Shown one piece after another: positions 1,060 through 16,826 of a stretch of DNA of 64,000 bases; position 1 is the stretch's first letter, and the number at the start of each line of letters is the position of its first letter. The notes beneath the pieces were generated by a model. That model worked only from the letters and a program-made list of their open reading frames with translations, searched no databases and was not told the origin of the DNA. This DNA is from Acidimicrobiia bacterium. Its GTDB lineage: Bacteria > Actinomycetota > Acidimicrobiia > Spongiisociales > UBA5794. The DNA lies in NCBI GenBank assembly GCA_035461905.1, contig DATHUV010000004.1:6850-70849 (forward strand), in the 5' to 3' direction. Both the position numbers and the translations under genes were made by a program.

Positions 1060-1194
1060 CCCTCCCTTCTGCCGGCGTCCTGCCGATCCTCTGGCGCTCG
1101 AACTGCCCTGATCGCTCGTGACACGCGCGATCGCGGCGAGCCTACCTCAGTGTGCGGAGGGGACCGGATCACCGACGATCGGCGACCGGAGGAC

Positions 1195-1836
1195 CTACCC
1201 GACCGTGCGATCGTCCGCTTCCCGGCCGACGACGAACCAGATGGCGTGGACCTCCTCGTCGCCCTTGTTGTACAGGCGGTGCGGTCGGGTCGAGTCGAAG
1301 GCGATCGAGTCCCCAGAGTTGAGGACGTATTCCTCGAAGCCGATCTGGATCCCCAGGGTCCCGCTCACGATGTAGCCGTACTCGCGACCGTGGTGGCGCA
1401 TCAGCGATTGATCGGGTGTCGAGGTACCGCCCACCTCGTAGATGGCGTGGAGGAAGTCGATGTCATCCTCCGTCTCAGCATTCAGGTCTTCCCAGCGGAC
1501 ACCCGAGGCGAGCTCGATGGAGCGCCGCTCACCGGGGTGCACGAGCGGAGCGTCGGACTCCGTGCGGTCTCCGTTCGAGGACGCATCCGGTGCGAACTCC
1601 TCACCCCTGATGACCCTGTCGAGTGAGATACCAAGCTCGGTGACGATCGCATACAACGTGCCGACCGACGGTTTCGACATCCCGCTCTCGAGCTGGGAGA
1701 TGAGGCTGGCCGACAATCCGAGGCGCCTGGCCAGCTCCCGCTGGCTGATGCCCGCCCTGACGCGTTCCTCCCTGAGCCGGTCCCCGATCCCGTCGAGCGC
1801 CTCGGGAACCGTCGTGGATCGCTGGACCTCGGTCAC
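1195..1836 (-). CDS. XRE-family HTH transcriptional regulator with C-terminal cupin domain
   Basis: N-terminal helix-turn-helix (ISQRELARRLGLSASLISQLESG) and a C-terminal cupin-like beta-barrel region. 4-nt overlap with the downstream SDR gene. Confidence 0.8.
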   Translation of the reverse strand: MTEVQRSTTVPEALDGIGDRLREERVRAGISQRELARRLGLSASLISQLESGMSKPSVGTLYAIVTELGISLDRVIRGEEFAPDASSNGDRTESDAPLVHPGERRSIELASGVRWEDLNAETEDDIDFLHAIYEVGGTSTPDQSLMRHHGREYGYIVSGTLGIQIGFEEYVLNSGDSIAFDSTRPHRLYNKGDEEVHAIWFVVGREADDRTVG

Positions 1837-2525
1837 AGGAGCATCCAGCCGCCGTCGACGTAGAGGTTCGTGCCATTCATCGCCCTGTTCTCGAGCAGGA
1901 ACACCGTCGCGTCGACGACCTCGGCCATTGTCGCCAACCGGCCCGTCGGCGTTCGCTTGATCACGGCATCGAGCGGCTTGTTCTCCCAGAACGGGCTGTC
2001 GCCGACGATTCCCGGGTGGATCGCATTGAACCGGATCGGGGCGAGCTCGATGGCGAGGGTGTTGATGATGCTGCTGATGCCCCCGTTGACGGTGGTCACC
2101 GTGGTCGACCCCGGGTACGGGCGGTCCTTCGCCCTCCCGCCGAAGAGGACGACCGACGAGTCGTCGGAGAGGCGGTCCAGCAGGGTGTGGATCGTGGCGG
2201 TGTAGCCGACGAGCTTCATCGTCGTGAGGTTGATCGCGCCCTCGATCGAGTATTCGCGCACGGGGTTGTTGTCCCTGGCGATCGCCGAAAGCACCAGGCG
2301 CGACACGGGCCCGACGTCCGAGAGGGCGCTTGCGATGGTCTCCGGCTTGGCGAGGTCGAAGCCGAGGCCGACGACCCCTTCACCGATCTCGGTCGCGATC
2401 GAGGCCGAACGTTCGGGCTCGCTGCCGGTGATGATCACCGAACTGCCACGCTCGTGGTAGTGCCGAGCGACCTCCCTGCCCAGTCCACCTGTTCCGCCGA
2501 CTATGACGACAGATCCCTCGGTCAT
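1833..2525 (-). CDS. SDR-family NAD(P)-dependent oxidoreductase
   Basis: N-terminal VIVGGTGGLG Rossmann motif, classical SDR length (230 aa), consistent hydrophobic pattern. Confidence 0.85.
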   Translation of the reverse strand: MTEGSVVIVGGTGGLGREVARHYHERGSSVIITGSEPERSASIATEIGEGVVGLGFDLAKPETIASALSDVGPVSRLVLSAIARDNNPVREYSIEGAINLTTMKLVGYTATIHTLLDRLSDDSSVVLFGGRAKDRPYPGSTTVTTVNGGISSIINTLAIELAPIRFNAIHPGIVGDSPFWENKPLDAVIKRTPTGRLATMAEVVDATVFLLENRAMNGTNLYVDGGWMLL

Positions 2526-2739
2526 CGCGACCCGCTCCTTCGTTGCTCACAGCGAGGATAGACACACACAGGCGCCGTGTGCAGTGGCGTTGATCGAGAA
2601 TCAAGCCCTGACGGCCGCGCGGCATCGGTCGGTACCCGCTCCAAGGTGCGCTCTGCACCATACGCCTCAGCCGATTCTGGGAAATCTTCCCCAACTGATG
2701 CGAGCGACCCTCGAACGAAGTGTGTAGTGTCACTGGACA

Positions 2740-3630
2740 ATGAAGGCGACAAACCCGACAGTGGCGGTGATCGGTATCGGTCGGATGGGTGGCGCAATGG
2801 CGGCGACCCTCGCCCGAGCCGGATTCAGCACGATCCTGTGGAACCGCAACCGATCGAAGGCCGACGCCGTCGGCGCGGCGATCGGTGCACCGGTGGCTGC
2901 CACGGCAGCTGAAGCGGCATCTCGCGCCGACGTCGTCCTGACCAGCCTCGCCGACGATGCCGCCGTCCTGGACACCTACCTCGCCCCCGACGGAATCGTC
3001 GCGGGCGTCACACCGGGCACCGTCGTGCTCGAGACCAGCACCATCGACCCCGAAACCGTGCAGAGGGTCGGCGCCGCGATCGACGCGGCCGGTGGAGCCC
3101 ACCTCGACTGCCCCGTTTCGGGAAGCGTCTCCACCGTGGAGGCTGGCGCGCTGACGATCATGGTCGGGGGCGCCACTGAGGTGCTCGAGCGGGCGAGGCC
3201 GGTCCTCGACGCCTTGGCATCCAACGTCATCCACGTCGGGGACCGCGGCGCGGGTGCCGCAACCAAGCTGGCCGTCAACGGGCTCGTCCACGGGCTCAAC
3301 GTCGCGCTGTCCGAAGCGGTGGTCCTCGCCGAGCGGGCGGGCGTCGACCGAACGAAGGCATACGAAGTGTTCGCGACCGGTGCAGGCGGTGCACCGTTCG
3401 TGCAGTACAAGCGGGACGCCTACGAGCACCCCGACGAGGCAGTCGTGGCGTTCAGCCTCGACCTCGTCGCCAAGGACCTCGAACTCATCACGGGCCTCGG
3501 CGAACGGGTCGGGGCACCGATGCGCCAGGCGGCCGCCGGCCTCGACATCGTCAACAGCGCCATCGGCGCCGGCTTCGGGGACCGGGACCTCAGCGCGATC
3601 GCCGTGTACCTGCGGGAGGGAGCAACCTGA
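2740..3630 (+). CDS. NAD(P)-dependent oxidoreductase, 3-hydroxyisobutyrate dehydrogenase (HIBADH/6PGDH-like) family
   Basis: N-terminal VAVIGIGRMGGAMA dinucleotide-binding motif; about 296 aa with a C-terminal 6PGDH-like helical domain. Stop overlaps the next gene start (TGATG). Confidence 0.8.
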   Translation: MKATNPTVAVIGIGRMGGAMAATLARAGFSTILWNRNRSKADAVGAAIGAPVAATAAEAASRADVVLTSLADDAAVLDTYLAPDGIVAGVTPGTVVLETSTIDPETVQRVGAAIDAAGGAHLDCPVSGSVSTVEAGALTIMVGGATEVLERARPVLDALASNVIHVGDRGAGAATKLAVNGLVHGLNVALSEAVVLAERAGVDRTKAYEVFATGAGGAPFVQYKRDAYEHPDEAVVAFSLDLVAKDLELITGLGERVGAPMRQAAAGLDIVNSAIGAGFGDRDLSAIAVYLREGAT

Positions 3631-4541
3631 TGTCCCACCACATCGTCAAGACCTCACCCAACCTCACCTACGACATCCCGGCCGAGTTCCGCGGCCGCAG
3701 CTCCGGCTATACGGGGGACTTCGTCGTGGATGAGGCGGCCGGCTCGGTGCAGATGGGGTTCCGTGTCGCAAGGCTGGAGCCCGGCGGACACGTCGAGGCC
3801 CACATCCACTCGTTCGAGGAATCGATATACGTCATCGACGGCACCCTCGCCCTCGACACGCCCGAAGGAAGCCATGAGCTCTCGACGGGCGACTACGCGC
3901 TTGTGCCCGTCGGCATGACCCATGCACTGCGGAACCATTCGGATGCACCCGTCGCCTTCGCCGAGATGAAAGCGCCGCTGCCCAGGGAGCGGTTCGCGTA
4001 CGACACCCACTTCCCCGGCCCCCTGGCCTCCGCCAAGCCGGCTGCCATCGACGTCCGCGACCCTCGGAACCGGTACTTCGGGCACATCGACGCAGCATCG
4101 ATGGATCCCACGCTCCAGACCCAGGACCGGCTGGCGCTGAGTGCCAGCATGCGGACCGCGCTCCTCGTCTACAGCGGCATCAGCGTGAAGATGATGGTCG
4201 ACTCGGACCTCGGAGCCGACCTGTCGACGATGTTCATGGTCCAGTACGAGCAGGGCGGCTTCGCAGGCGCCCACGACCATCCCCTCGAGGAGGCGTACCT
4301 CATCCTCGAGGGCGAGGTCGAGGCTGTCTTCGACGGGTCTCACTACGAGCTCGCACCGGGGGACGTCGCGTGGGCGGGCGTCGGATGTGTCCACGAGTTC
4401 CGCAACATCGGTGCCGGCAAGGTCCGGTGGCTCGAGACCCAGGCTCCTCAGCCCCCTCCGAGGCACTCCTACCGATTTGCACGTGATTGGTCATATCTCG
4501 AGAACGCACTGGCCGACGAAATTCGACCGGGCACGCAGTAG
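3630..4541 (+). CDS. bicupin (two cupin domains) protein, function unknown
   Basis: Two repeated cupin-like segments with His/Glu metal-ligand patterns (HxH...E at aa ~57-65 and HDHPLEE at aa ~215). 303 aa is a typical bicupin size. Confidence 0.7.
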   Translation: MSHHIVKTSPNLTYDIPAEFRGRSSGYTGDFVVDEAAGSVQMGFRVARLEPGGHVEAHIHSFEESIYVIDGTLALDTPEGSHELSTGDYALVPVGMTHALRNHSDAPVAFAEMKAPLPRERFAYDTHFPGPLASAKPAAIDVRDPRNRYFGHIDAASMDPTLQTQDRLALSASMRTALLVYSGISVKMMVDSDLGADLSTMFMVQYEQGGFAGAHDHPLEEAYLILEGEVEAVFDGSHYELAPGDVAWAGVGCVHEFRNIGAGKVRWLETQAPQPPPRHSYRFARDWSYLENALADEIRPGTQ

Positions 4542-4559
4542 AGCGCGAGGAGTACACGA

Positions 4560-5813
4560 ATGGGCGAGTTTCCGGTGGCCACGAGTCCAGCCCCTGGGGT
4601 GATGGGCGTCGATTGGGAGAACAGGGTCGACTTCGAGAGGCTCCGGCAGTACCGGCTCGGGCGCGTGAAGATGATGCTCGAGCAGTTCGACCTCGGCGCC
4701 GTGCTGCTGTTCGAGACCTCGAACATCCGCTACGCAACAGCCACCCAGATCGGGTACTGGGCCTTCAACAAGGGCGAGCGGTGGGCACTCGTCACGCGGG
4801 AGGGCCGTCCCAAGGTCTGGGACTTCGGCTCGGCGGCGAAGGCACACCGCCTCCAGCTCCCCCACATGTACGACACGGAGAACTCGGTCGGTGGCAATAC
4901 GGGGCTCCAGGGCGCGATCGGGCCCGAGACCGGGCTCCACGCTCGGGCGGTCCGCGAGATCAAAGGTGCACTGGAGGACGCAGGCGTCGCCCACGAGAAG
5001 CTCGGTGTCGACCTCGCCGAGACAGCCGTCTTCCTCTCACTGCAGTCAGCGGGGCTCGACGTCGTCGACGGCCAGCAGGCGATGATGCATGCCAGGGAGA
5101 TCAAGAACCCCGACGAGATCATGCTGCTCACCCAAGCGTGCGCGATGGTCGACGGCGTGTACCAGGACATCTACGAGATGCTCAAGCCGGGGATCCGCGA
5201 GTCGGATGTCGTCGGCATGGCCCACAAACGGCTCTTCGAGATGGGATCCGAGTTCGTGGAGGCGATCAACTCGATCGCGGGCGAGCGGTGTAGCCCCCAC
5301 CCACACGTCTTCAGCGACAGGCTGATCCGCCCGGGCGACCAGGCGTACTTCGACATCATCCACGCCTTCAACGGGTACCGCACGTGCTACTACCGCACCT
5401 TTGCGGTCGGACGGGCGACCCAATCCCAGCGCGATGCGTTCAAGCAGTCGAGGGAGTGGATGGACGCCGCGATCGACCTCGTCAAGCCGGGAGGCACGAC
5501 GGACCAGATCGCCAAGGTGTGGCCACGGGCTGAGGAGTTCGGATTCGCCGACGAGATGGACGCGTTCGGGCTCCAGTTCGGGCACGGTGTCGGCGTCGGG
5601 CTGCACGAGCGCCCCATCATCAGCAGGCTGAACTCCCTCGAGACCCCTGTCGAGATCAAGGAAGGCATGGTCTTCGCCCTCGAGACGTATGCACCAGCCG
5701 ACGACGGCCACTCCGCGGCACGGATCGAGGAGGAAGTCGTTGTGACCGCGGACGGGTGCAAGGTCATCACCCTGTTCCCATGCGAGGACCTCATGGTGGC
5801 GAATGCCTACTGA
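4560..5813 (+). CDS. M24-family metallohydrolase (creatinase / Xaa-Pro peptidase / ectoine-hydrolase-like)
   Basis: N-terminal creatinase_N-like domain and C-terminal pita-bread fold with conserved His/Glu/Asp metal ligands (HGVGVGLHE, ALETY). 417 aa. Confidence 0.8.
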   Translation: MGEFPVATSPAPGVMGVDWENRVDFERLRQYRLGRVKMMLEQFDLGAVLLFETSNIRYATATQIGYWAFNKGERWALVTREGRPKVWDFGSAAKAHRLQLPHMYDTENSVGGNTGLQGAIGPETGLHARAVREIKGALEDAGVAHEKLGVDLAETAVFLSLQSAGLDVVDGQQAMMHAREIKNPDEIMLLTQACAMVDGVYQDIYEMLKPGIRESDVVGMAHKRLFEMGSEFVEAINSIAGERCSPHPHVFSDRLIRPGDQAYFDIIHAFNGYRTCYYRTFAVGRATQSQRDAFKQSREWMDAAIDLVKPGGTTDQIAKVWPRAEEFGFADEMDAFGLQFGHGVGVGLHERPIISRLNSLETPVEIKEGMVFALETYAPADDGHSAARIEEEVVVTADGCKVITLFPCEDLMVANAY

Positions 5814-6864
5814 TCCCCGATACGACTACGCGCTCCGAGAGCCGCGCCTCCCCGATCCGGTGGACCACACGCTCGCGGACGCCGACATCGACATCGCGGT
5901 GAGGCTCGGGATGTATCGGAAGTTGCAAGAGCTGCGCCAGTTCTCCAAGCGCGCCCACGACCTGTTCCTCCAGAACCTGGTGAAGGGCACGACCCACCTG
6001 TCCCTCGGGATGGAGGCGATCGCGACCGGCTTCGGTGCCGCGATGAAACCCGGTGACTACACCTTTGCCACGTATCGGGGGCACGCCCACTCGTTGGCCA
6101 GGGGCATGGACCTCGGTGCCGCCATGGCCGAGCTCCTCGGAAGGGACAACGGCATCCTCGGCGGTAAGGGCGGGTCGATGCATCTCACCGATGTATCGAA
6201 AGGGATGATGGGCTCGTACGCGATCATCGGGGCGCACTTGTGCATCGCGAACGGTGCGGCGTGGTCCGCTCAGATGCGAGGAACCGATCAGGTCGCCGTC
6301 GCCTTCTTCGGGGACGGGACGACCAACATCGGTGCGTTCCACGAAGCGCTCAACATGGCCAAGATCTGGGACCTCCCCGTCGTGTTCGTGTGCGAGAACA
6401 ACCTCTACATGGAGTACACGCCGATCGACGTCATCACGGCGGTCGACCACCCCGCTGCGGGCAGGGCGTCCGCGTACGACCTCGAATCGATCCTGATCGA
6501 CGGCAACGACCCCGACGCCGTGTACCTCACGGCGAAAGAGGCCATCGCCCGTGCACGCGCCGGCGAGGGTCCGTCCCTGATCGAAGCGGTCACCTACCGC
6601 ACCGGTGGCCACTCACGGGCCGACCCTGCCAAGTACCGGCCCGCCGACGAGGTCCAGGCATGGGCGGGACGCGACCCCATCCCCGTGTACCACGAGCGGC
6701 TGCTGTCCATCGGGACACCGGAGGCTGAGCTCTCCACGATCGAGCGCGAGGTGGCCGACGCCATCGACGCGGCGACGGACTTCGCAAAGTCAGGAAGGGA
6801 ACCGGGGGCCGAGGTGCTGCTCACCGACGTCTGGGCGGACGGGGGGTCGCAGTGGCGGAATTGA
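5803..6864 (+). CDS. TPP-dependent 2-oxoacid/acetoin dehydrogenase E1 component, alpha subunit
   Basis: TPP-binding GDG-x(n)-NN pattern (FFGDGTTNIG...VFVCENNLY) and the YRxGGHS phospho-loop motif typical of PdhA/AcoA. Overlaps the previous and next genes. Confidence 0.85.
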   Translation: MPTDPRYDYALREPRLPDPVDHTLADADIDIAVRLGMYRKLQELRQFSKRAHDLFLQNLVKGTTHLSLGMEAIATGFGAAMKPGDYTFATYRGHAHSLARGMDLGAAMAELLGRDNGILGGKGGSMHLTDVSKGMMGSYAIIGAHLCIANGAAWSAQMRGTDQVAVAFFGDGTTNIGAFHEALNMAKIWDLPVVFVCENNLYMEYTPIDVITAVDHPAAGRASAYDLESILIDGNDPDAVYLTAKEAIARARAGEGPSLIEAVTYRTGGHSRADPAKYRPADEVQAWAGRDPIPVYHERLLSIGTPEAELSTIEREVADAIDAATDFAKSGREPGAEVLLTDVWADGGSQWRN

Positions 6865-7841
6865 GCTACCGGGACGCCGTTGCCTACGGGATCGCTCAAG
6901 AGATGCGTCGCGACCCGCATCTCGTCATGCTCGGCGAGGACATCGCCGCGGCTGGCGGCGTGTTCAAGACGACCGTCGGTCTCCTCGACGAGTTCGGACC
7001 CGACCGCGTCCGCGACACCCCGATCTCGGAGCAGGCCATCATCGGAGCGGCCATGGGTGCGGCGATGACCGGGGTGCCCGTGATCGCCGAGATCATGTTT
7101 TCCGACTTCCTCGCCGTGTGCTGGGACATGATCGCCAACGAGATCGCCAAGAGCCGCTACATGACCAACGGCCAGGTGTCGTTCCCCCTCGTCATCAGGA
7201 CGGCGAACGGCGGAGGCGCACGCTTCGGAGCCCAGCACTCCCAGAGCGTCGAGAACTGGGCGATGATGATCCCCGGCCTCAAGGTCGTCGCGCCCTCCAC
7301 TCCCCTCGACGTCGTCGGCCTCATGGCTGCCGCCATTCGGGATCCCGACCCCGTCATCTTCTTCGAGCACAAGGCCCTGATGGCGACCAAAGCGGAGATT
7401 CCCGACGGCGAGGTCGTCGACGAGCTCGGGACGGCGAGGATCGTGCGTGAAGGGACCGATGTCACGATTGCCGCGCTCGCCCTGATGGTTCCCAGGGCCC
7501 TCGAGGCGGCCGAAAGGCTCGCCGAGGAGGGGATCTCGGCGGAAGTCATCGACCTCCGGTCGCTCGTCCCCCTCGACACGCACACCCTCCTCGAGTCGGC
7601 GACGAGGACCGGAAGGCTCTTCACCGTTGAGGAGAACCCCCGACTGTGCGGGTGGGGCGCCGAGATCGTCTCGATCGTCGGTGAGGAGGCGTTCTGGGAC
7701 CTCGACGGTCCCTGCGTCCGGATCACCACACCGCACATCCCGCTCCCTTCAGCGGCTTCCCTCGAGGACCTCGCGCTGCCGTCGGTGGACCGCATCTACG
7801 AGACGGTCGCCAAGTCGGTCGATTCGAGGAGCGGGACATGA
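6852..7841 (+). CDS. TPP-dependent dehydrogenase E1 component, beta subunit (transketolase-like pyrimidine-binding plus C-terminal domain)
   Basis: Typical E1-beta sequence (EFGPDRVRDTPISEQAIIGAAMGAAMTG, FEHKAL, EVIDLRSLVPLD). ATGA overlap with the downstream amidohydrolase. Confidence 0.85.
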   Translation: MAELSYRDAVAYGIAQEMRRDPHLVMLGEDIAAAGGVFKTTVGLLDEFGPDRVRDTPISEQAIIGAAMGAAMTGVPVIAEIMFSDFLAVCWDMIANEIAKSRYMTNGQVSFPLVIRTANGGGARFGAQHSQSVENWAMMIPGLKVVAPSTPLDVVGLMAAAIRDPDPVIFFEHKALMATKAEIPDGEVVDELGTARIVREGTDVTIAALALMVPRALEAAERLAEEGISAEVIDLRSLVPLDTHTLLESATRTGRLFTVEENPRLCGWGAEIVSIVGEEAFWDLDGPCVRITTPHIPLPSAASLEDLALPSVDRIYETVAKSVDSRSGT

Positions 7842-9121
7842 GCTCCAGCTACCTCGTGCGTGGCGGCGTCGTCCTCACCCTGGGCGCTCGCACGCAGAAC
7901 CACGCAGAGGCAGACGTGCTGATCGAGGACGGGGTCATCACCGAGATCGGACAAGGGCTCCGAGCACGGACCGCCGAGACGATCGACGCGTCGCACGCGA
8001 TCATCATGCCGGGATTCGTGGATGGACACCGGCGTTGCCGCATGTCCCTCTTCAAGAACGACGGCACCCTGTCAGCCGTTGACGACCCCTCCCCCGATGT
8101 CGTCTACGCCGGAACCCTTGTGTCGTTGCTCGCAGCAGCAGAGGCCGGCGTCACGACCGTCGTCGACTGGTACGACGGACCGGCCGGTGGTGACCACCTC
8201 GATGCGGCACTGCGCGCCCACGCGGAATCGGGAATGCGGACGGTGTTCGTGATGGCGCCGAACCACGACCCGGTCGAGACGTGGCGCGACACCGTGGCAC
8301 GCCACGGGATGATGCCGAGCCCCACAACCTCTCTCGCCGCTGGCATCCGGTCGATCCACGGACGAGGTGCCGACGACTCGAAGGCACTGTGGGCAGCCGC
8401 GCGCGACGCCGGACTGCGCGTCCACGTAATTGCGGGGCCGAGCGAGCGGGACTCGTTCACAGGGCCCTCCCGTGACCTCCTTGGCGCGAACGTCACCGTT
8501 GCGCATTGCTGCGGTCTCTCCGACAGCGACCTCGACGCACTTGCCTCGTCAGGTGCAGGCGTCATCCTGACCCCGACGAGCGACATGACCGACGGGCCGG
8601 GCGCGCCTGCGGTGCAGGCCTTCCTCGATCGCGGCATTCGGCCGGGCCTCGGCGTCGACAACGACCTCCTCGGCCCCGGCGACATCCTCGCACAGATGCG
8701 AGCCGCCATCTCGGTCCAGCATGCGACCTACTTCGACCTCAAGCTCGCCGGCAAGGGCGGCCTGCCCAACCTCCTCACCACCCGCGACGTCATCAAGTAC
8801 GGCACGATCGACGGAGCCCGCGCCATCGGACTTGGCGAGGTCACCGGATCGATCGAGGTCGGGAAGGCTGCCGACCTCATCGTCCTGCGCACGGACAAGC
8901 CGAACATCCATCCCGTCAACGACCCCATCGGAGCCGTCGTGTGGGGTGTTGACACCTCGAACCTCGATGTCGTCCTCGTCGGCGGACAGCCGCTCATGCG
9001 CGATGGCGTGCTCACCAGCGACACTGGACGCATCCGCACGCTCGTGAACGATGCCCGCGGTCGGGTCGGCGCCACTGCGGGATCGCCGCCTCCCGAGAAG
9101 ACGGGATGGGGTGACACGTGA
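7838..9121 (+). CDS. amidohydrolase-family protein (ATZ/TRZ, cytosine/guanine-deaminase-like) with a divergent first metal motif (HxR instead of HxH)
   Basis: C-terminal GSIEVGKAADLIVL signature; metal ligands H (VHVIAG), H (VAHCC), D (GVDND) are present, but the N-terminal motif reads GFVDGHRRCR where HxH is expected (nt 8027-8035). Confidence 0.8.
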   Translation: MSSSYLVRGGVVLTLGARTQNHAEADVLIEDGVITEIGQGLRARTAETIDASHAIIMPGFVDGHRRCRMSLFKNDGTLSAVDDPSPDVVYAGTLVSLLAAAEAGVTTVVDWYDGPAGGDHLDAALRAHAESGMRTVFVMAPNHDPVETWRDTVARHGMMPSPTTSLAAGIRSIHGRGADDSKALWAAARDAGLRVHVIAGPSERDSFTGPSRDLLGANVTVAHCCGLSDSDLDALASSGAGVILTPTSDMTDGPGAPAVQAFLDRGIRPGLGVDNDLLGPGDILAQMRAAISVQHATYFDLKLAGKGGLPNLLTTRDVIKYGTIDGARAIGLGEVTGSIEVGKAADLIVLRTDKPNIHPVNDPIGAVVWGVDTSNLDVVLVGGQPLMRDGVLTSDTGRIRTLVNDARGRVGATAGSPPPEKTGWGDT

Positions 9122-10164
9122 CCACGACGCGCCAACCATCGGCGGCCCTGACCTCACTCGTCGTGAGCTCACGCTTCGTACCGGTGTACATCGCGCTCGC
9201 CCTGCTCGTCGTGGTCGCGTGGATCTGGGCGCCACAGACACTGTCGTCGGTACCGCTTCGTGCCATCGCACCGTACGGTGCCGTCCTCGGCGTCGCCGCG
9301 CTCGGGCAGATGCTCGTCATCATGACGGGCGGTATCGACCTCTCGGTGCCCGGAACGATGAGCCTCGCGGCCGTGATCATGGTCGGCGTGGGAGCCGGGG
9401 CCGACGAGAACCTCGGACGCGCGGTAGCGATCGCGCTCGCCGCCAGCGCCATCGTTGGGCTGTTCAACGGCATCCTCATCGGGGGTCTCAAGCTCAACCC
9501 GCTGATCGTCACCCTCGCCGTCGGGTCGATCGTCACCGCACTCGTGTTCAGGTACGCCAACACCTTCACCGTCCAGAATCCGGTACCTGGGGGACTGACC
9601 GCCTGGACCACCAACCGGATCTGGGGACTCAGCGCGGTGTTCTGGCTGGGACTCGCGGTCACCGTGATCGTCAGCCTCGTGCTGCGCTACACGACCGCGG
9701 GGCGCCGGTTCCAGGTTGTGGGTGCCAACCCGGTGGCTGCGAATGTGCTCGGCGTTCGTGTCACCACGAACCAGGTCATGGCGTACGTATTCGCGGCGCT
9801 GCTGTACGCGGCTGCGGCGATCGCTCTCGCAGGCCTCCTGCGACGCCCGGGGGCGTCCGTCGGGACGCAGTACCTCCTCGCCCCGATCGCCGCCGTTGTC
9901 ATCGGCGGCGCCTCCCTGACCGGTGGGCTGGCAAGCGCGTTCTCCACCTTCACGGCGGGGCTGTTCCTCACCGGCCTCAACCAGATGATGCTCACGATGG
10001 GCCTCCCCACCTCACTCCAGTTCGTCGTGTTCGGCCTCGTCATCATCGCCGGCATGTTGGTCTCCGGAGATCGGATCACGAAGGGCGTGGAGCAGCTGCT
10101 CCGAGAACGAAGACGCCCGACCCGCTCGGAGGTGGAAGAAATACTGACCCCAATGAACGAATGA
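9118..10164 (+). CDS. ABC transporter permease, CUT2 (ribose/nucleoside-type, RbsC/NupB-like)
   Basis: About 9 TM segments and the GGIDLSVP motif typical of CUT2 permeases. GTGA overlap with the upstream gene. Confidence 0.8.
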   Translation: MTTTRQPSAALTSLVVSSRFVPVYIALALLVVVAWIWAPQTLSSVPLRAIAPYGAVLGVAALGQMLVIMTGGIDLSVPGTMSLAAVIMVGVGAGADENLGRAVAIALAASAIVGLFNGILIGGLKLNPLIVTLAVGSIVTALVFRYANTFTVQNPVPGGLTAWTTNRIWGLSAVFWLGLAVTVIVSLVLRYTTAGRRFQVVGANPVAANVLGVRVTTNQVMAYVFAALLYAAAAIALAGLLRRPGASVGTQYLLAPIAAVVIGGASLTGGLASAFSTFTAGLFLTGLNQMMLTMGLPTSLQFVVFGLVIIAGMLVSGDRITKGVEQLLRERRRPTRSEVEEILTPMNE

Positions 10165-10243
10165 GGCGAGAAAGGAGACTCGCAACCACGGCGCACCGAA
10201 CGGCGAGCGCCGGAGAACGACCCTGACCCTACTGGAGGACGAA

Positions 10244-11626
10244 ATGAGACACTGGAAGATCATCGCGCTGCTCGCTGTGTTCGCACTCGTGGTCGCCGCA
10301 TGTAGCAGCGACAGTGAGTCGACGACCACGACCGCGGGCGGCGAAGAAACGACCACGACCGCTGGCGGCGAAGAGACGACCACGACCGCTGGCGGCGAGG
10401 AAACGACCACGACTGCAGGCGGCGGGGAGGGCCCGTTGGCGCAGTTCGGGGAGAGCACCGACGCAGACCAAGCACTCGTCGACAAGGCCCTCGGCCCGGT
10501 CGATCCGTCGGACGAGGCGAGCTGGAACATCATCCTCGCCTCGATCGCACGAGTCGAGCAGGAAGTCGATCAGGCCACCATCGACAAGGCGCTGGAATGC
10601 CTCAACAACCAGCAGTGTGACACCGGCACTGGCGGAGCAGTGGTCATGGGCTACGCCGACGGCGGTGGAGACACCGTGAACGTCTGGCGTGCAGTGAGCC
10701 ACATGGAGGCGATCCTCCAGGCACTGACCTATCCGGAGATCGGCACGATCATCTCGACCGAGGCGAACTTCGATCCCGATCCGAATGTCGCAGCGAACGA
10801 CATCCGATTCCTCATCAGCAGCGGCGTCGACTTCATCGTCGGGTACCCGGATGCCGGAATCGCCATCGCCGATGCGGTCAAGGAGGCTGACGACGCAGGT
10901 ATCCCCTACGTATCGTTCTCCGCAGGGTGGGTCGGTCTGCCAGACCAGGACGGTGCCCTCATCCCCGGTGAGGACTACCTGACGGTCGTGGGTGAAGACC
11001 TGTGCGCGCTCGGAGAGAGCTTCGCGGAGGTCATCAACACGAACGCCTCGGGCGAAGCGGCGGTACTCGGCGGGACGCCGGGCAATGCACTGTCGTTGGG
11101 ATGGCAGCGATGCATCTTCCCGGCCTTCAGCGATTCGATCACCGCGGTGAACCCTCCGCCGAACGACGACACGACGGTCGGCGACACCTTCTGGTTCGAT
11201 CCGGCGATCCCCGGTGTGTTCCAGGGACTCCTCACCACGAATCCAGAGATCCGTGGTTGGGCCTACGAGTACTCGGACGGCATGAACACGGGTCTCACGG
11301 TGTACGAGGATCTCGGCATCCCTGTCGAGAACCTCACGGTTGCGTTGCGTACCGACGAGCAGACCCTGTTCTGTGACTGGGTGGATCGCAATGAGCCGAC
11401 GTACAACATCTGGTATTCAGCGGGAGGCAACTTCCAGTCTCGGGTCGGGGTGACCGCAGCGATGATCGCGTTGCAGGATCCCAGCGTGATTCCTGCGGAG
11501 ATCGTCGTGCCCCACGTGATGCGGCAGGTGACGGCGGCCGACTGCAACCCGGATCGACCGAACCCGTTCGTGTCCGGGACGTCGCTCGTGCCCGACGCGG
11601 TGCTCGAGTTGATGTTCGCCGGCTGA
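10244..11626 (+). CDS. ABC transporter substrate-binding lipoprotein (PBP type I-like) with N-terminal tandem-repeat linker
   Basis: Signal peptide plus lipobox (LVVAAC). Four copies of TTTTAGGEE follow the lipid-anchored Cys. The remainder resembles periplasmic sugar/nucleoside-type binding proteins. Confidence 0.7.
   Translation: MRHWKIIALLAVFALVVAACSSDSESTTTTAGGEETTTTAGGEETTTTAGGEETTTTAGGGEGPLAQFGESTDADQALVDKALGPVDPSDEASWNIILASIARVEQEVDQATIDKALECLNNQQCDTGTGGAVVMGYADGGGDTVNVWRAVSHMEAILQALTYPEIGTIISTEANFDPDPNVAANDIRFLISSGVDFIVGYPDAGIAIADAVKEADDAGIPYVSFSAGWVGLPDQDGALIPGEDYLTVVGEDLCALGESFAEVINTNASGEAAVLGGTPGNALSLGWQRCIFPAFSDSITAVNPPPNDDTTVGDTFWFDPAIPGVFQGLLTTNPEIRGWAYEYSDGMNTGLTVYEDLGIPVENLTVALRTDEQTLFCDWVDRNEPTYNIWYSAGGNFQSRVGVTAAMIALQDPSVIPAEIVVPHVMRQVTAADCNPDRPNPFVSGTSLVPDAVLELMFAG
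10322..10429 (+). repeat. 4 x 27-nt near-perfect tandem repeat encoding (TTTTAGGEE)x4 inside the SBP gene
   Basis: The units acgaccacgaccgc[g/t]ggcggcga[a/g]ga[a/g] are directly visible and differ by only 1-3 substitutions each. Confidence 0.9.
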
Positions 11627-11655
11627 CCGATGAAGGCGTCCCCGAAGGAGGGTCG

Positions 11656-13245
11656 ATGACCGACGAGCTCGTCCTCGAGCTGGAGGGTGTGTCCCGCCAG
11701 TTCGGCGCGGTCCGTGCGCTGACCGATGTCAGCTTCGACTGCCGCGCTGGCGAGGTTCACGCCCTCGTTGGCGAGAACGGCTCCGGAAAGTCGACCCTCC
11801 TCGGGATCGCCAGTGGATTCGTGGATCCGGATCTCGGCACGATCCGGATCGGTGGCCAGCGCCTGCGCCGGGACTCCCCGGCGCAGGCGCGCAAGCTCGG
11901 GCTCGCCATGGCGTACCAGGACACCTCCCTGGTCCTCCCCGAGCCCGTGAAGAACAACCTGTATCTCGCGGCACCTGCGAGCAAGCGGCCGCCGTACTGG
12001 CAGCGCAAGAAGTGGGCACGAAAGCTGCTCGCCGATTTCGAGCTCGATCTCGAGCTGTTCCCTGACGCCCCGGCAGGGTTCCTCACCCTCGCCGACCGAC
12101 AGCTGTTCGAGGTCGCAAAGGCGTTGGTCACGGACCCGAAGGTGTTGCTGCTCGATGAACCGACCACCGCGCTCGGACCGGATGAGGTCGAGGCGCTGCA
12201 CCGAACGATCTCAGCGTGCCGTGACCGCGGGATAGGAGTGGTGTACGTGAGCCACCGCCTCCCGGAGGTGCTCGAGATCGCCGACAGGATCACCGTCCTG
12301 CGTGACGGTCGGTACCAGGGCACGTTCGACGCCCACGCAACCACCGAGGAGGGGCTCGTCGAGCTGATCGTCGGAAGGCCGTTCGAATCCGCCTTCCCGC
12401 ACCCGGCGCCCGCCACCTACGAGCCTCGCGATGTCCTGGTCGTCGACGGGCTCCAGGGGGAGGCGTTCGGCCCGGTCAGCTTCACACTCCACAGCGGCGA
12501 GGTGGTCGGAATCGCAGGAGCCGAGGGCAACGGTCAGGACCTGATGTTCGACACCCTGGCAGGACGCACCCCACCAAGGGCCGGGCGCGTCGTGTGCGAT
12601 GGCAAGGAGTTGAGCCTCGTGTCCACGCACGAGGCGGTCGGGGCGGGTATCCAGCTGCTCCCTGGCGACCGCAAGCACCAGGCCCTCATGGGGGTCCTCG
12701 GCGTTCGGGTGAACGCGACCATCCAGTCGCTCCGCAGGTTCAGCGTCGCCGGCATCCTCCGACGCGGCGCCGAGCGAAAGAGCGTAGAGGAGCTGGTCGA
12801 CGAGCTCGCGATCCGAACGCCATCGCTCGAACAGCCGGTCGAATTCCTCTCCGGTGGGAATGCACAGAAGGTTTCGGTATCACGGACGTATCTGCGGGAG
12901 CCTTCCGTGATCCTCGCATTCGAACCCACCCAGGGTGTTGACGTCGGGTCCCGGTTCGACATCTACCAGGCCCTCCGAAGCCGCACGAACACGGGTGCAG
13001 CGATGCTCGTGAAGTCCAGCGACCCGATCGAGCTGTCGGGGTTGTGCGACCGTGTGCTCGTGATGTCCCGTGGGCAGATCGTCGAGGAGATTCCTGGCGA
13101 TGAGCTTTCCGAGCACCGCATCGTCGAGGCGATCGTCCGCGGGCCTGGCATGTCGAAGGCCGCCAGATCCCCACTGGGTGTTGCAATGCCGAAGGCATCG
13201 TCGCCGTCGGGCAACGGCAGCGGACCACACGAGGGCGCACCATGA
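11656..13245 (+). CDS. ABC transporter ATP-binding protein with two fused ATPase domains (RbsA/NupA-like, CUT2)
   Basis: Walker A GENGSGKST in domain 1, LSGG signature, second degenerate ABC domain; 529 aa. Confidence 0.85.
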   Translation: MTDELVLELEGVSRQFGAVRALTDVSFDCRAGEVHALVGENGSGKSTLLGIASGFVDPDLGTIRIGGQRLRRDSPAQARKLGLAMAYQDTSLVLPEPVKNNLYLAAPASKRPPYWQRKKWARKLLADFELDLELFPDAPAGFLTLADRQLFEVAKALVTDPKVLLLDEPTTALGPDEVEALHRTISACRDRGIGVVYVSHRLPEVLEIADRITVLRDGRYQGTFDAHATTEEGLVELIVGRPFESAFPHPAPATYEPRDVLVVDGLQGEAFGPVSFTLHSGEVVGIAGAEGNGQDLMFDTLAGRTPPRAGRVVCDGKELSLVSTHEAVGAGIQLLPGDRKHQALMGVLGVRVNATIQSLRRFSVAGILRRGAERKSVEELVDELAIRTPSLEQPVEFLSGGNAQKVSVSRTYLREPSVILAFEPTQGVDVGSRFDIYQALRSRTNTGAAMLVKSSDPIELSGLCDRVLVMSRGQIVEEIPGDELSEHRIVEAIVRGPGMSKAARSPLGVAMPKASSPSGNGSGPHEGAP

Positions 13246-15698
13246 CCTCGCGCGTCGATTCTGCTCGCCGGGCGGTCCGCAAGGTCGTGCGCGATGCCCG
13301 CGACAAGAACAAGTGGCGCAAGATCGTCAAGTTCCGCCTCTGGATGCCCGTGGTGCTCCAGGTCCTGCTGATCGGCATCCTCTTCTGGTACGGGACCACA
13401 CAATCGCAGGGATTCGCGACGAGCGAGAACATCACACGGATCCTGCTGCTCGCCGTGCCTCTGATCATCGTCACGGCGGGCCAGATCAACGCGCTCCTCG
13501 TCGGCTACCTCGACCTGTCCGTGGGAGCGATGATCAGTCTCGGTGTCGTCCTGGCTTCGTTCCTCATGGGATCGGACGCCTCAGGGTTCGAGATCGCAAT
13601 CGCCGCCGGGGCGATCATGCTCAGCGGAGCCGCGCTCGGTGCCGTCAACGCGGGTCTGATTCGGGGGGTGAAGATCCCCTCGATCATCGCGACCTTGGCG
13701 ACCCTCAGCATCGTCAACGGCATCGCACTCACCATGCGCCCGACAGCCCAGGGTGTCATCAACGGTGAGTTCGTCAGCTTCCTCAAGACAAGCGTCGGAC
13801 CGATCCCGGTGTCGTTCATCGTCGCCCTGGTTGCAGTCGGCCTCGCCGATCTGTGGCTCCACGCGTCCGGCAGCGGACTCGAACTCCGAGCGACCGGATT
13901 CGACGAGCGCTCGGCAAAGCGGGGCGGCGTTCCCACGACCTGGGTTCGGGTGCGGGCCCTGCTGCTTTCAGGAGTCCTCGCGGCACTCGCATCCTTCTTC
14001 GTCATCGCTGCACAGTCCCCGGTGGGAAATGCCCAGATCGGGGGCCCGTACACCCTTCGGTCGATCACCGCAGCGGTCCTCGGAGGTGCCGCCATCGCCG
14101 GAGGACGCGCCACGTTCGTCGGTGGGACCGTCGCGTCGGTCCTGCTCGCACTCATCCTCACGATCCTGCCGTACATCGGCTGGTCGAATGAGGACGCCGG
14201 CCTGATCATCGGACTGCTCGTCCTCATCGGGATCATCATCTTCCAACTCGGAGACCTCAAGGAGCTGGTCAAGCGCAACTACAAGCGAGCGCGCCGACTG
14301 ATCCAGGGAAGCCGCCCCCCAAACGTGGCGGACCTCCCCGTGCTCTACCCAACGGGCTCGGACTTCAGCGTCGTACCGACCGACCGGAAGCTCATCCGTG
14401 GGGGCACGATCCTGTCACAGGATCCGAACGTCGGCGACCTCGCCGTGGGGGATGTCCTCATCGACGGCGACACAATCCTCGAGATCGGACCGACGATCAC
14501 GGCGGACAACGCCGAGGTGATCGACGCCGCGGGGATGATCGTCATGCCCGGATTCGTCGACACGCACCGCCACATCTGGGAGGGCCTGTTGCGAAACATC
14601 GGGACGGACGTCCCCTTGGAGGGCCGCACCAGCTACATCTCGTTCGTCCTCCACAAGCTAGCGCCCGCATTCCGCCCGGAGGACGCCTACGTCGGGAACC
14701 TGATCTCATGCCTCGGCGCGATCGACGCCGGTGTCACGACTCTCCTCGACTGGTCCCACATCCAGGGATCTCCCGCCCACACGGACGCCGTGATCGAGGC
14801 CCTCGAGGACTCGGGGATCCGGGCCGTGTTCGCCTACGGGTTCCCGTGGTGGGGCAAGTGGGAGGAACGACAGCCGAGCTGGTTCGTCCGGGCGGCGACC
14901 GAGCACTTCGCAACGAAGGACCAGATGCTGACGCTTGCGCTGGCAGCACCAGGACCCGAGTTCACCGACTTCGAAATCACGAGGGATCACTGGAAACTCG
15001 CACGCGAGACGGACGCCCGGATCACCACCCATGTCGGGGTCGGGTCCTACGGCCAGGACGGCAAGGTCCAGGAGTTCGGGGAGGCAGGACTCCTCGGGCC
15101 TGACAGCACCTACATCCACTGCACCACGCTCAACGACACAGAGATCCAGATGATCGTCGACTCGGGGGGCACGGTCTCGTTGGCCTCACCGGTGGAGATG
15201 ATGATGGGTCACGGCATGCCCCCGATCCAGAAGTTCCTCGACAGGGGCCTTCGTCCGAGCCTCAGCGTCGACGTCGAGACGAACGTGCCAAGCGACATGT
15301 TCAACCAGATGCGGTCCGTGCTCGCCCTCCAGCGTGGCATGGCAGTTGCAGAGGGGAAGGATCCCATCGGGCCATCGGACGTGCTTGAGTACGCAACCGT
15401 GGAAGGGGCGAGGGCGAACGGACTCGACCACAAGACGGGTTCCCTCACACCCGGCAAGCAGGCCGACGTCATCATGCTAAGAACGGATCGGATGAATGTG
15501 ACGCCGCTCAACGATCCGGCAACTGCGGTCGTCGTCGGCATGGACACCGGCAATGTGGACACGGTCCTCATCGCGGGTCGAGTCATGAAGCGCGGTGGAC
15601 GACTCCTCCATGTCGACTGGCGAGCGACGATGAAGGCCGCCGAGGAGGCGAGGGAATACGTCATCGAGAAGTCGGGCTTCAAGCTCCCCAAGATCTGA
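13242..15698 (+). CDS. fusion protein: CUT2 ABC permease (aa ~1-350) joined in-frame to an amidohydrolase (aa ~367-818)
   Basis: Continuous 818-aa ORF. The N-terminal half is a polytopic permease paralogous to 9118..10164; a ~25-aa linker follows (SRPPNVADLPVLYPTGSDFSVVPT). The C-terminal half is an amidohydrolase with intact PGFVDTHRH, HV, IHC, SVDVET ligands and a GSLTPGKQADVIMLRTD tail. An in-frame GTG at 14340 could also give a stand-alone amidohydrolase. Confidence 0.75.
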   Translation: MTSRVDSARRAVRKVVRDARDKNKWRKIVKFRLWMPVVLQVLLIGILFWYGTTQSQGFATSENITRILLLAVPLIIVTAGQINALLVGYLDLSVGAMISLGVVLASFLMGSDASGFEIAIAAGAIMLSGAALGAVNAGLIRGVKIPSIIATLATLSIVNGIALTMRPTAQGVINGEFVSFLKTSVGPIPVSFIVALVAVGLADLWLHASGSGLELRATGFDERSAKRGGVPTTWVRVRALLLSGVLAALASFFVIAAQSPVGNAQIGGPYTLRSITAAVLGGAAIAGGRATFVGGTVASVLLALILTILPYIGWSNEDAGLIIGLLVLIGIIIFQLGDLKELVKRNYKRARRLIQGSRPPNVADLPVLYPTGSDFSVVPTDRKLIRGGTILSQDPNVGDLAVGDVLIDGDTILEIGPTITADNAEVIDAAGMIVMPGFVDTHRHIWEGLLRNIGTDVPLEGRTSYISFVLHKLAPAFRPEDAYVGNLISCLGAIDAGVTTLLDWSHIQGSPAHTDAVIEALEDSGIRAVFAYGFPWWGKWEERQPSWFVRAATEHFATKDQMLTLALAAPGPEFTDFEITRDHWKLARETDARITTHVGVGSYGQDGKVQEFGEAGLLGPDSTYIHCTTLNDTEIQMIVDSGGTVSLASPVEMMMGHGMPPIQKFLDRGLRPSLSVDVETNVPSDMFNQMRSVLALQRGMAVAEGKDPIGPSDVLEYATVEGARANGLDHKTGSLTPGKQADVIMLRTDRMNVTPLNDPATAVVVGMDTGNVDTVLIAGRVMKRGGRLLHVDWRATMKAAEEAREYVIEKSGFKLPKI

Positions 15699-15833
15699 AC
15701 CCTGCGACATCCTCCTCGACGTCGACCCTTGGAAAAGCGCCGTTGGGGGTTTGAACGGATCGCTCCAGAACCCACTCGTCGACCGAGGTGATCCCGCGTA
15801 GGATCCGGGGAACACGAGCGACAGGGGTGATCC

Positions 15834-16766: not shown

Positions 16767-16826
16767 CCGGGCGCAGGCATCACCCTCCCGAACGGTCGCG
16801 AGGCGCCCTGCGCGTCGCTGGCTCGA

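Follow-up and report, generated by a model that had tools for sequence, protein, structure and literature searches.

ABC importers of the CUT2 type (RbsABC, AraFGH, XylFGH and LsrABCD; TC 3.A.1.2) consist of an ATPase with two nucleotide-binding domains (NBDs), two BPD_transp_2 permeases and a substrate-binding protein (SBP) of the RbsB or cluster B fold. Transporters that carry a catalytic domain at their cytoplasmic exit, where the substrate is modified on entry, are exemplified by the SulP–carbonic anhydrase fusions, group translocation by the phosphotransferase system (PTS) and vectorial acylation by FadD. Here we describe an operon of ten genes in a 64,000-nt stretch of DNA (hereafter the window) from a soil Acidimicrobiia bacterium (assembly GCA_035461905.1, contig DATHUV010000004.1, positions 6,850–70,849 of the forward strand). 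The operon encodes a CUT2 importer with all of the parts listed above, and it differs from the described importers in that one permease is fused to an amidohydrolase of 438 residues. The fusion resembles the known transport metabolons in concept and differs from them in its carrier, the permease of a primary-active ABC importer, and in its enzyme, a hydrolase. ABC importers and catabolic operons are ordinary, but an ABC permease covalently joined to what is probably the first catabolic enzyme is not, and our literature searches found no description of an ABC permease–amidohydrolase fusion.

The fusion is encoded by gene 10 of the operon, one uninterrupted open reading frame (ORF) of 818 aa at 13242–15698 with no stop codon before 15696. 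Its BPD_transp_2 stretch (aa 64–329) scored 68 bits against a cut-off of 26.8, and aa 381–812 make up a complete amidohydrolase (Amh2), which matched the PRK08204 model with 511 bits (cut-off 391) over model positions 3–445 of 449. RbsC-type permeases have ten transmembrane (TM) helices with the N and C termini inside the cell; a crude hydropathy scan of the fusion found nine of the ten expected helices. Positive residues are abundant at its N-terminus (12 K/R in the first 30 aa), in the loop that follows hydrophobic segment six, which fits the cytoplasmic coupling loop, and in the 60 aa following the last TM helix (11 K/R; KELVKRNYKRARR...). By the positive-inside rule, both ends of the permease part would be cytoplasmic, and a linker of about 45 residues would hold the enzyme domain on the cytoplasmic side of the membrane.

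Relatives of the fusion form more than 120 protein clusters from the NCBI, ENA, JGI and Logan collections; all 120 listed ones share 76–100% identity with it at 98–100% coverage, and those with a source name are metagenome-assembled genomes (MAGs) of Acidimicrobiia. In addition, species-representative genomes were scanned with an amidohydrolase alignment. This yielded 80 loci, all but one from MAGs, each of which was searched with the proteins of the window; the MAG isolate names refer mainly to soil and in some cases to wastewater and sediment. Loci are cited below by L numbers. ORFs of 791–848 aa with the fusion architecture were revealed in loci from Anaerolineae/Chloroflexota MAGs (L040–L045, L048 and L055), and in a further Chloroflexota locus (L053) the permease ORF continues into the amidohydrolase N-terminus as far as the contig end. 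Retention of the fusion in two phyla and in more than 100 sequence clusters from metagenomes of soil and wastewater means that selection must be acting on it.

Among the best 150 matches in a set of 1.84 billion 50%-identity representatives, a single protein was fused over its full length (P0241, 72% identity), and the rest were stand-alone enzymes of about 450 aa with 37–55% identity. One stand-alone relative with 55% identity adjoins genes for a Peripla_BP_4 SBP and a CUT2 ATPase. In three distant loci, from Verrucomicrobiota (L082), Conexibacter stalactiti (L084) and Alphaproteobacteria (L085), the permease is unfused and the amidohydrolase is encoded by a separate gene in the same neighborhood. 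Thus, the association of the enzyme with the transporter is older than the fusion itself.

A deletion variant was found in one MAG (MFD02199.bin.2.161; L035, 9000–11694). Here, E1 beta is followed by a short 5' fragment of an Amh1-like gene and then by residues 324–818 of the fusion, that is, the last TM helix, the linker and Amh2, while permease 1, SBP, ATPase and most of permease 2 are gone. The variant looks like the product of recombination between the two amidohydrolase paralogs. It should also be noted that copies of the fusion close to those of Acidimicrobiia (81–85% identity) occur in loci labelled as Acidobacteriota (L049, L058), Jiangellaceae (L017) and Fimbriimonadaceae (L021); mis-binning of MAGs is a likelier source of these discordant labels than transfer.

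The ten genes of the operon (2740–15698) follow one another on the plus strand and all have ORFs at the coordinates collected in the table, together with the divergent genes upstream. As the preliminary description of this locus had it, overlaps of start and stop codons were found at 3630 (TGATG, 1 nt), 5803 (11 nt), 6852 (13 nt), 7838 (ATGA), 9118 (GTGA) and 13242 (ATGA), that is, at six of the nine junctions, and the other three junctions are gaps of 18, 79 and 29 nt. A GGAG/GAGG-like Shine-Dalgarno sequence precedes nine of the ten starts, gene 1 being the exception, and a pattern scan found no terminator-like site on the plus strand within the operon. Pfam and NCBIfam assigned the products to a HIBADH-type oxidoreductase, a bicupin, an M24 enzyme, the alpha and beta subunits of a thiamine diphosphate (TPP)-dependent E1, two PRK08204-type amidohydrolases and a CUT2 transporter, the last two in the order Amh1–permease 1–SBP–ATPase–permease 2::Amh2. 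These results support the view that the genes constitute a single catabolic unit, coupled in translation, in which a CUT2 importer is combined with amidohydrolases of the ATZ/TRZ clan. The operon belongs to the ABC-importer-linked catabolic type, and every part of it comes from a well-known superfamily.

Table. Features of the operon and of its upstream region (coordinates in the window)
Feature	Position	Strand	Family assignment and remarks
XRE-HTH + cupin transcriptional regulator, PuuR-like architecture	1195..1836	-	Pfam HTH_3, Cupin_2; last gene of the divergent SDR-regulator pair
Short-chain dehydrogenase/reductase (SDR)	1833..2525	-	Pfam adh_short_C2; 4-nt overlap with the regulator gene
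Divergent intergenic region, 214 bp	2526..2739	.	Separates the two divergent units
Beta-hydroxyacid dehydrogenase (HIBADH / tartronate-semialdehyde reductase family), 296 aa	2740..3630	+	Pfam NAD_binding_2, NAD_binding_11
Bicupin, 303 aa	3630..4541	+	Two Cupin_2 stretches
M24 'pita-bread' enzyme, 417 aa, distinct subfamily, full-length DddP-like	4560..5813	+	Pfam Peptidase_M24
TPP-dependent dehydrogenase E1 alpha, 353 aa	5803..6864	+	Pfam E1_dh
E1 beta, 329 aa, GTG start	6852..7841	+	Transket_pyr, Transketolase_C
Amidohydrolase paralog Amh1, 427 aa, degenerate metal site	7838..9121	+	Amidohydro_1; PRK08204 263 bits (cut-off 391)
CUT2 permease 1, 348 aa, GTG start	9118..10164	+	BPD_transp_2 88 bits; AraH-, LsrC- and RbsC-like; 9–10 hydrophobic segments
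Substrate-binding lipoprotein (SBP), 460 aa	10244..11626	+	Signal peptide with lipobox Cys, Thr-rich repeat linker, RbsB-fold domain
CUT2 ATPase, two fused NBDs, 529 aa	11656..13245	+	Two ABC_tran stretches
Permease 2 part of the fusion, aa 1–380, including the K/R-rich linker	13242..14381	+	BPD_transp_2, aa 64–329
Amidohydrolase domain Amh2 of the fusion, aa 381–818, intact metal site	14382..15698	+	PRK08204

To see how the operon genes are distributed, we compared the neighborhoods of the loci. Among 42 loci with an Amh2 relative of at least 76% identity, the transporter was present in 35, M24 with E1 in 19 and the bicupin in 10. The order and orientation of the genes are shuffled. M24-E1ab and the transporter diverge in some loci; in others M24-E1ab lies downstream of the fusion and is followed by bicupin-SDR-HIBADH, and in some the regulator is found at either end. 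In Chloroflexota (L053, L054 and L057) the arrangement is regulator | HIBADH-E1a-E1b-M24-E2-bicupin-bicupin-SDR-Amh-transporter. The same gene families were also revealed in Gaiellales and other actinomycetes (L075, L078, L081), a Micromonosporaceae MAG (L050), Verrucomicrobiota (L082) and Alphaproteobacteria (L085). A check of neighborhood conservation had been suggested in the preliminary description, and the families were indeed found together, rearranged, in dozens of loci from several phyla. Since they keep together in shuffled order across phyla, the cluster is a real functional unit, more than a chance grouping.

From these neighborhoods, three modules are separable: (A) Amh1-CUT2-Amh2, (B) regulator-bicupin-SDR and (C) HIBADH-M24-E1ab. 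Module B is located next to an amidohydrolase gene in L076, L077 and L082. Module C was found in cultured bacteria, with identity levels of 53–60% for M24, 34–45% for E1, 32–37% for HIBADH and 39–45% for the regulator. In Phaeobacter gallaeciensis (pGal_E78), Marinovum algicola (pMaD4) and strain SC52 it takes the form SBP-SDR-M24-E1a-E1b-lipoyl protein-aldehyde dehydrogenase-E2, with LpdA added in Phaeobacter. Genes for a CUT2 sugar-type transporter, an SDR and a HIBADH-like oxidoreductase, joined in Phaeobacter and SC52 by one for a ThuA protein, lie divergently to this Roseobacter unit. Streptomyces sp. YIM 121038 has HIBADH-like-M24-aldehyde dehydrogenase-VOC-E1ab (fused)-E2, and more scattered versions occur in Paenarthrobacter ureafaciens SD-1, Rhodococcus opacus 1CP and Streptomyces NBC_01450.

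The known enzymes closest to the operon amidohydrolases are those of the cog0402/ATZ-TRZ group (AtzA, TrzN, 5'-methylthioadenosine/S-adenosylhomocysteine (MTA/SAH), 8-oxoguanine and guanine deaminases), with which Amh2 shares the (beta/alpha)8 fold and a mononuclear metal site. In our alignment this site is intact in Amh2, comprising the HxH motif (HRH, H62/H64), H217 of beta5, H246 of beta6 and D297 of beta8. The operon enzymes differ from the group in belonging to a separate subfamily, PRK08204 ('hypothetical protein'), of which we found no solved or characterized member. They differ also in that the glutamate of the HxxE motif after beta5 is replaced by Val (THVGVG in Amh2 vs THLAEN in 3HPA; the PRK08204 consensus here is HVGxG), and in that one copy is membrane-tethered while the other has lost two ligands. 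In Amh1 of the window, as in its close relative in L002 (4582–5850), HxH is changed to HRR and the beta5 His to Ile, so that two of the four ligands are missing. Most of the other Amh1 orthologs examined keep HRH, the exceptions being L017 (HRR) and L047 (HRV). Amh1 is the fastest-evolving gene of the cluster, with 45–67% identity where M24 shows 78–94% and Amh2 76–86%. Judging by its ligands, Amh1 of this genome is probably inactive and either serves as a partner without catalysis or is a copy in decay. The fused Amh2, with which it may pair as a pseudo-enzyme, looks like the only catalytically competent copy here. Because the metal site of Amh1 is degenerate, two sequential deaminations are unlikely in this genome. 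Of the two amidohydrolases noted earlier beside the importer, one is part of a permease and the other carries HRR and the beta5 Ile.

Classification of the amidohydrolases with hidden Markov models, which the preliminary description had proposed, gave a match above the cut-off only for Amh2 and only with the uncharacterized PRK08204. The substrate-specific (equivalog) models in play were those of guanine, 8-oxoguanine, MTA/SAH and 5'-deoxyadenosine deaminases and of AtzB-like enzymes; the best matches with such models reached 181, 165 and 135 bits vs cut-offs of 609, 522 and 532. A function of the guanine, cytosine or pterin deaminase type is weakened by the missing HxxE glutamate. In the PDB the nearest profile neighbors of the subfamily are AtzA, MTA/SAH deaminase, 8-oxoguanine deaminase and TrzN (E = 1e-59 to 1e-42). 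The similarity to the s-triazine (Atz/Trz) pathway goes no further than the clan level of AtzA/TrzN, and no genes of the AtzD/E/F type were detected. Amidohydrolase relatives from Xanthobacteraceae (about 50% identity) were considered as a clue to the substrate and set aside; they have unrelated neighbors (TctC, M1 peptidase, histidine kinase, cation efflux). Some Acidimicrobiia have a third amidohydrolase paralog after E1 beta (L001, 1–1159; L046, 14611–15975), 44–45% identical to Amh2.

The importer proteins themselves are divergent members of their families. The ATPase is AraG-, XylG- and RbsA-like over its full length (350–381 bits, under the equivalog cut-offs), and the equivalog models of CUT2 importers reached about half of their cut-offs. 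The SBP is about 100 residues larger than those of described CUT2 systems and barely reaches the Peripla_BP_4 cut-off (35.8 vs 35.1 bits). Its AlphaFold2 model (pLDDT 80, pTM 0.83) shows a predicted ribose-binding-protein (RbsB) fold; the best Foldseek matches were binding proteins for ribose, galactofuranose, arabinofuranose, xylose, xylitol/threitol and 5-methylthioribose (RbsB, YtfQ, XylF), with target TM-scores of 0.7–0.8. Between the lipobox Cys and the folded domain, a 27-nt tandem repeat (10322–10424, 3.8 copies, 92% matches) encodes a linker of four TTTTAGGEE units. This repeat causes a spurious Pfam 'New_glue' match, and the length of the linker differs among homologs (435–485 aa).

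The M24 enzyme matched its Pfam fold with 120 bits and has the full-length two-domain architecture (creatinase-N plus pita-bread) of DddP, DoeA/EutD and creatinase. DddP was its best NCBIfam match (residues 24–410), and its PDB matches 4S01, 4RZY and 4B28 are DddP structures. The equivalog scores stayed well below the cut-offs (DddP 113/600, DoeA 73/613 and PepQ 75/630 bits), with E = 6e-8 for creatinase in the PDB. Four metal ligands are kept (D265, H342, E375, E390), but the second Asp ligand is an invariant Cys276. This substitution and an additional invariant GERCxPHPH motif set the enzyme apart from DddP, DoeA and creatinase and are kept from Acidimicrobiia to Phaeobacter and Streptomyces; the metal chemistry of such a Cys-substituted site may be unusual. 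The partner genes differ as well, since E1/E2 and HIBADH accompany the operon M24 and not its counterparts in the ddd, doe/eut and creatinine pathways. The metagenome protein collection contains a very large number of homologs of this M24 (8000 candidates, each with E of 1e-10 or less). Orthologs with 53–60% identity are present in cultured Phaeobacter, Streptomyces, Paenarthrobacter and Rhodococcus; in the Roseobacters and in Streptomyces YIM 121038 they adjoin E1/E2, and in the other cultured strains the cluster is more scattered. The names of M24 and SBP homologs offered no clue to the substrate, as only near-identical MAG proteins with generic names were retrieved ('Xaa-Pro peptidase', 'ribose transport SBP').

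The HIBADH-type oxidoreductase, which is co-conserved with M24 and E1, had tartronate semialdehyde (2-hydroxy-3-oxopropionate) reductase as its best NCBIfam match (174 bits, cut-off 341). In the bicupin, the metal motif HxH...E...H is complete in each of the two domains (AHIHSFEE...MTHALRN and AHDHPLEE...CVHEFRN, as read from the translation). Its relatives in the PDB are weak only (cupin isomerase, MncA and quercetinase), and its best NCBIfam match was ureidoglycine aminohydrolase (45 bits, cut-off 200).

E1 alpha and E1 beta resemble the acetoin and pyruvate dehydrogenase (PDH) complexes (AcoABCL, PdhABCD) in being a heteromeric pair of the PDH 'y' type. E1 alpha contains the TPP motif (GDG...NN) and the YRTGGHS loop and scored 319 bits with PDH_E1_alph_y (cut-off 394), and E1 beta, aligned from residue 1, scored 353 bits with PRK09212 (cut-off 321). 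An SDR and an aldehyde dehydrogenase accompany the Roseobacter version, as in butanediol/acetoin utilization. The differences are that acetoin and PDH operons have no M24 enzyme, to which the E1 described here is always linked, that E1 alpha is under the PDH equivalog cut-off, and that E2 and E3 are missing from the operon and the window. A tblastn search found no E2 homolog in the window, and none was present in any Acidimicrobiia locus; E3 was likewise not found in the window. In clusters from other bacteria, the additional conserved gene encodes a canonical E2 composed of lipoyl, E3-binding and 2-oxoacid_dh catalytic domains (331–341 bits with the PDH-type acetyltransferase model). It was found in eight Chloroflexota loci and in L078, L082 and L085, as well as beside E1/M24 in Phaeobacter, Marinovum, strain SC52 and Streptomyces. 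Given that homologous clusters elsewhere carry E2, the lack of it is a lineage-specific loss from the cluster and not the mark of a lyase. Sharing of E2 and E3 encoded elsewhere is common, and most likely, as the simplest reading of these comparisons, E1 depends on a lipoyl-E2 and an E3 encoded at other positions of the genome. The absence of E2/E3 reported earlier for this locus is thus real within the 64 kb, but it loses its value as a sign of a stand-alone TPP lyase.

We consider it somewhat more likely than not (about 0.55) that the operon serves the catabolism of an imported hydrophilic, probably sugar-like compound with a C-N bond of the amidine, amino-heterocycle or ureido type. In the proposed scheme, the CUT2 system would import a hydrophilic compound bearing amidine-, amino- or ureido-type nitrogen, and Amh2, tethered to permease 2, would hydrolyze the C-N bond or deaminate the substrate at entry; hydrolysis at the translocation exit would trap the substrate, keep its free intracellular level low and pull uptake forward. 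The bicupin with its two metal sites and the SDR would then reshape the product by isomerization, oxidation or ring opening. Finally, M24, E1ab (with E2/E3 in trans) and HIBADH would cleave a 2-oxoacid or acyloin oxidatively to acyl-CoA and a (semi)aldehyde or hydroxy-acid. We infer the coupling of the enzyme domain to transport and the order of the steps. The Roseobacter version of module C lies amid sugar-type transport and SDR genes and has no amidohydrolase, which suggests that the lower pathway handles a carbohydrate-like skeleton; nitrogen removal would be the addition made by the versions of Acidimicrobiia and Chloroflexota. As a bolder and rather doubtful extension, the importer could carry out chemical group translocation, with Amh2, perhaps paired with the catalytically dead Amh1 (its gene is coupled in translation to that of permease 1), docking under the pore and converting the substrate as it emerges.

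Several observations weigh against this reading. The topology of the fusion rests on the positive-inside rule and on a crude scan that found nine of ten helices. The HxxE glutamate, which the characterized cog0402 deaminases use, is missing from Amh2, and the chemistry may not be simple deamination. The SBP shares only 12–20% identity with its sugar-binding matches and has extra residues, E2 is absent as described above, and all equivalog-level models are far under their cut-offs across the operon proteins. Module A was found without the other modules within ±10 kb in seven loci (L015, L017, L020, L027, L036, L058 and L065), so the modules need not act on one substrate. Finally, amidohydrolase relatives with 44–45% identity in cultured Rhodococcus, Cupriavidus and Sinorhizobium lie in aromatic ring-cleavage clusters, and actinomycete versions of module C are located near genes of an HpaB-type monooxygenase (Streptomyces NBC_01450), a flavin reductase (R. 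opacus 1CP) and CMD; these neighbors point to a heteroaromatic rather than a sugar-like substrate.

These neighbors are the ground of a serious, if unlikely, rival, in which the operon would degrade an N-heteroaromatic or aromatic compound with an amino or hydroxy substituent. An exocyclic amino group would be removed, or a lactam opened, by the amidohydrolase, the bicupin would be a ring-cleaving dioxygenase, M24 would hydrolyze the ring-fission product, and E1(/E2) with HIBADH would consume the oxo-acid and semialdehyde. Both cupin domains have the full 3-His/1-Glu sites seen in bicupin dioxygenases and quercetinase, the ring-cleavage clusters just mentioned contain FAD monooxygenases, extradiol dioxygenases, meta-cleavage-type hydrolases, FAH and CoA-transferase plus citryl-CoA lyase, and in Streptomyces NBC_01450 and R. 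opacus 1CP not only M24 and E1 but also the regulator, HIBADH and the bicupin occur near the monooxygenase or flavin reductase genes and near those of CMD. However, identity of 44–45% does not fix the substrate within the amidohydrolase superfamily, no hydroxylase or oxygenase besides the bicupin was found in the window cluster or in its Acidimicrobiia and Chloroflexota relatives, a CUT2 importer with an RbsB-fold SBP is of a type known for sugars and polyols, and the Roseobacter lower module has sugar-type neighbors. Catabolism or salvage of a nucleobase or nucleoside, which the preliminary description had put forward, seems improbable to us. It would involve import and deamination of an N-heterocycle and opening of its ring via ureides, with the bicupin akin to ureidoglycine aminohydrolase and HIBADH acting as tartronate-semialdehyde reductase downstream of glyoxylate. 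The RbsB-fold SBP, with a 5-methylthioribose binder among its matches, speaks weakly for it, as do the solved relatives of the amidohydrolases (MTA/SAH, 8-oxoguanine and guanine deaminases) and the best NCBIfam matches of the bicupin and HIBADH. Those two matches fall far short of their cut-offs, though, the glutamate of base deaminases is missing, and the SBP is not of the BMP/PnrA nucleoside-binding type. Furthermore, neither the cluster nor its relatives encode a nucleoside hydrolase or phosphorylase, xanthine dehydrogenase, uricase, allantoinase, allantoate amidohydrolase or glyoxylate carboligase, which sets them apart from the ureide/allantoin pathway too, and we know of no place for an M24-E1-E2 module in the purine or pyrimidine routes.

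Two other alternatives concern parts of the cluster. That E1 alpha/beta acts without E2/E3 as a TPP-dependent decarboxylase, lyase or carboligase and passes an aldehyde to HIBADH and the SDR seems to us unlikely. The lack of E2 in all Acidimicrobiia loci agrees with it, and so do the two aldehyde- or hydroxy-acid-type reductases of the cluster and the closest cultured E1 alpha (Rhodococcus sp. USK13, 56% identity), which has no adjacent E2 and adjoins an aldehyde dehydrogenase. Set against this are the lipoyl-E2 genes in the homologous clusters of Chloroflexota and the other bacteria named above, the score of E1 beta above the PDH E1-beta subfamily cut-off, and the His-containing loop kept in E1 alpha, which in the E1 of PDH and of the branched-chain 2-oxoacid dehydrogenase (BCKDH) functions in lipoyl acylation. 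The USK13 cluster, which has other partners (Rieske oxygenase, arylsulfatase) and no M24, was set aside as a clue to the substrate. The view that the ten genes are unrelated units brought together by accident, and that the long last ORF arose from faulty assembly or a frameshift, is largely refuted and can be given hardly any weight. It could draw on the several loci where the transporter-amidohydrolase unit stands alone and on five loci where the fusion is split over two frames (L012, L024, L027, L052 and L058). The split cases all come from MFD MAGs built from long reads, and their multiple breaks of frame are in keeping with indel errors, while in the more than 120 clusters of four collections and in two phyla the fused ORF is uninterrupted; moreover, the gene set recurs rearranged across phyla, and most junctions of the operon overlap. 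An imported, probably sugar-like compound with a hydrolyzable C-N bond remains our preferred candidate for the substrate.

As concluded in the preliminary description, the operon matches no characterized pathway: the equivalog scores are far under cut-off and the PDB relatives are distant. Literature searches on the gene combination, on ABC transport metabolons and on DddP-like M24 enzymes found no relevant paper on such a cluster. The Atz/Trz, purine/ureide, ectoine, creatinine, dimethylsulfoniopropionate (DMSP) and acetoin pathways were all considered and rejected, since membership in a group of defined function fails wherever it can be tested. We also considered 2-aminopyrimidine as the substrate of the M24 cluster on the Paenarthrobacter plasmids. 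The sulfonamide degraders that carry these plasmids accumulate 2-aminopyrimidine as a dead end and leave it untouched (PMC10873849), and this candidate was dropped.

Three features of the locus deserve attention, namely the permease–amidohydrolase fusion, the degenerate paralog beside the other permease and the M24-E1 module with its Cys-substituted metal site. In the fusion, substrate channelling or metabolic trapping at a primary transporter can be tested on a natural example. If group translocation holds true, this would be a previously undescribed architecture of an ABC importer, in which transport and the first catabolic step form one machine; in uncultured Acidimicrobiia and Chloroflexota it would supply an uncharacterized pathway that uses an abundant nitrogen compound of soil. 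The lower pathway is genetically accessible, as parts of it are present in cultured Phaeobacter, Marinovum, Streptomyces, Paenarthrobacter and Rhodococcus. Identification of the substrate would show what this gene set, widespread in the dominant uncultured Actinomycetota and Chloroflexota of soil, does and would probably add a route to soil organic-nitrogen turnover.

Upstream of the operon, Pfam agrees with the earlier assignment of a divergent pair composed of an XRE-cupin regulator and an SDR. The regulator scored 64.8 bits with the PuuR model (cut-off 211), and its orthologs (35–71% identity) accompany the cluster in many loci and on plasmids of Rhodococcus, Paenarthrobacter and Streptomyces. 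The best NCBIfam match of the SDR was the generic SDR model PRK07041 (123 bits, cut-off 257); the SDR accompanies the bicupin and the amidohydrolase in the distant loci L076, L077 and L082. Judging by its position, the 214-bp region between the two units presumably holds the promoter(s) and an operator, and the XRE-cupin protein, as a repressor or activator, would control the divergent promoters. This region contains no match to the sigma-70 consensus and no inverted repeat of at least 8 nt. An Rfam scan of positions 1–17000 at E of 1 or less revealed no riboswitch; a match to the eukaryotic pRNA at 9052–9141 on the minus strand (24 bits vs a gathering score of 34, E = 0.45) was taken as chance.

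At 135 nt downstream of the operon there is a gene for a cysteine-synthase-like pyridoxal phosphate (PLP)-dependent protein of the PALP family (15834–16766, plus strand; cysKM 266 bits, cut-off 344). We considered it as an eleventh member of the operon, but it is not conserved beside the cluster in relatives and probably does not belong to it. Several ORFs of 240–340 aa have no Pfam match (29–760, 21643–22620, 23280–24272 and 39438–40451 on the minus strand; 760–1626 on the plus strand), and that at 760–1626, which overlaps the regulator gene on the opposite strand, may be spurious. Further neighbors encode a P-type cation ATPase (16827–19544, minus), a NERD-UvrD-type helicase (20584–22194, plus) and a protein similar to the [NiFe]-hydrogenase large subunit (43387–44826, minus), the last match being partial and weak (87 bits in two short stretches). 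Otherwise the window resembles an ordinary piece of chromosome, with genes for BipA, RecQ, GDH, CorA, an M20 peptidase and a beta-lactamase-fold protein.

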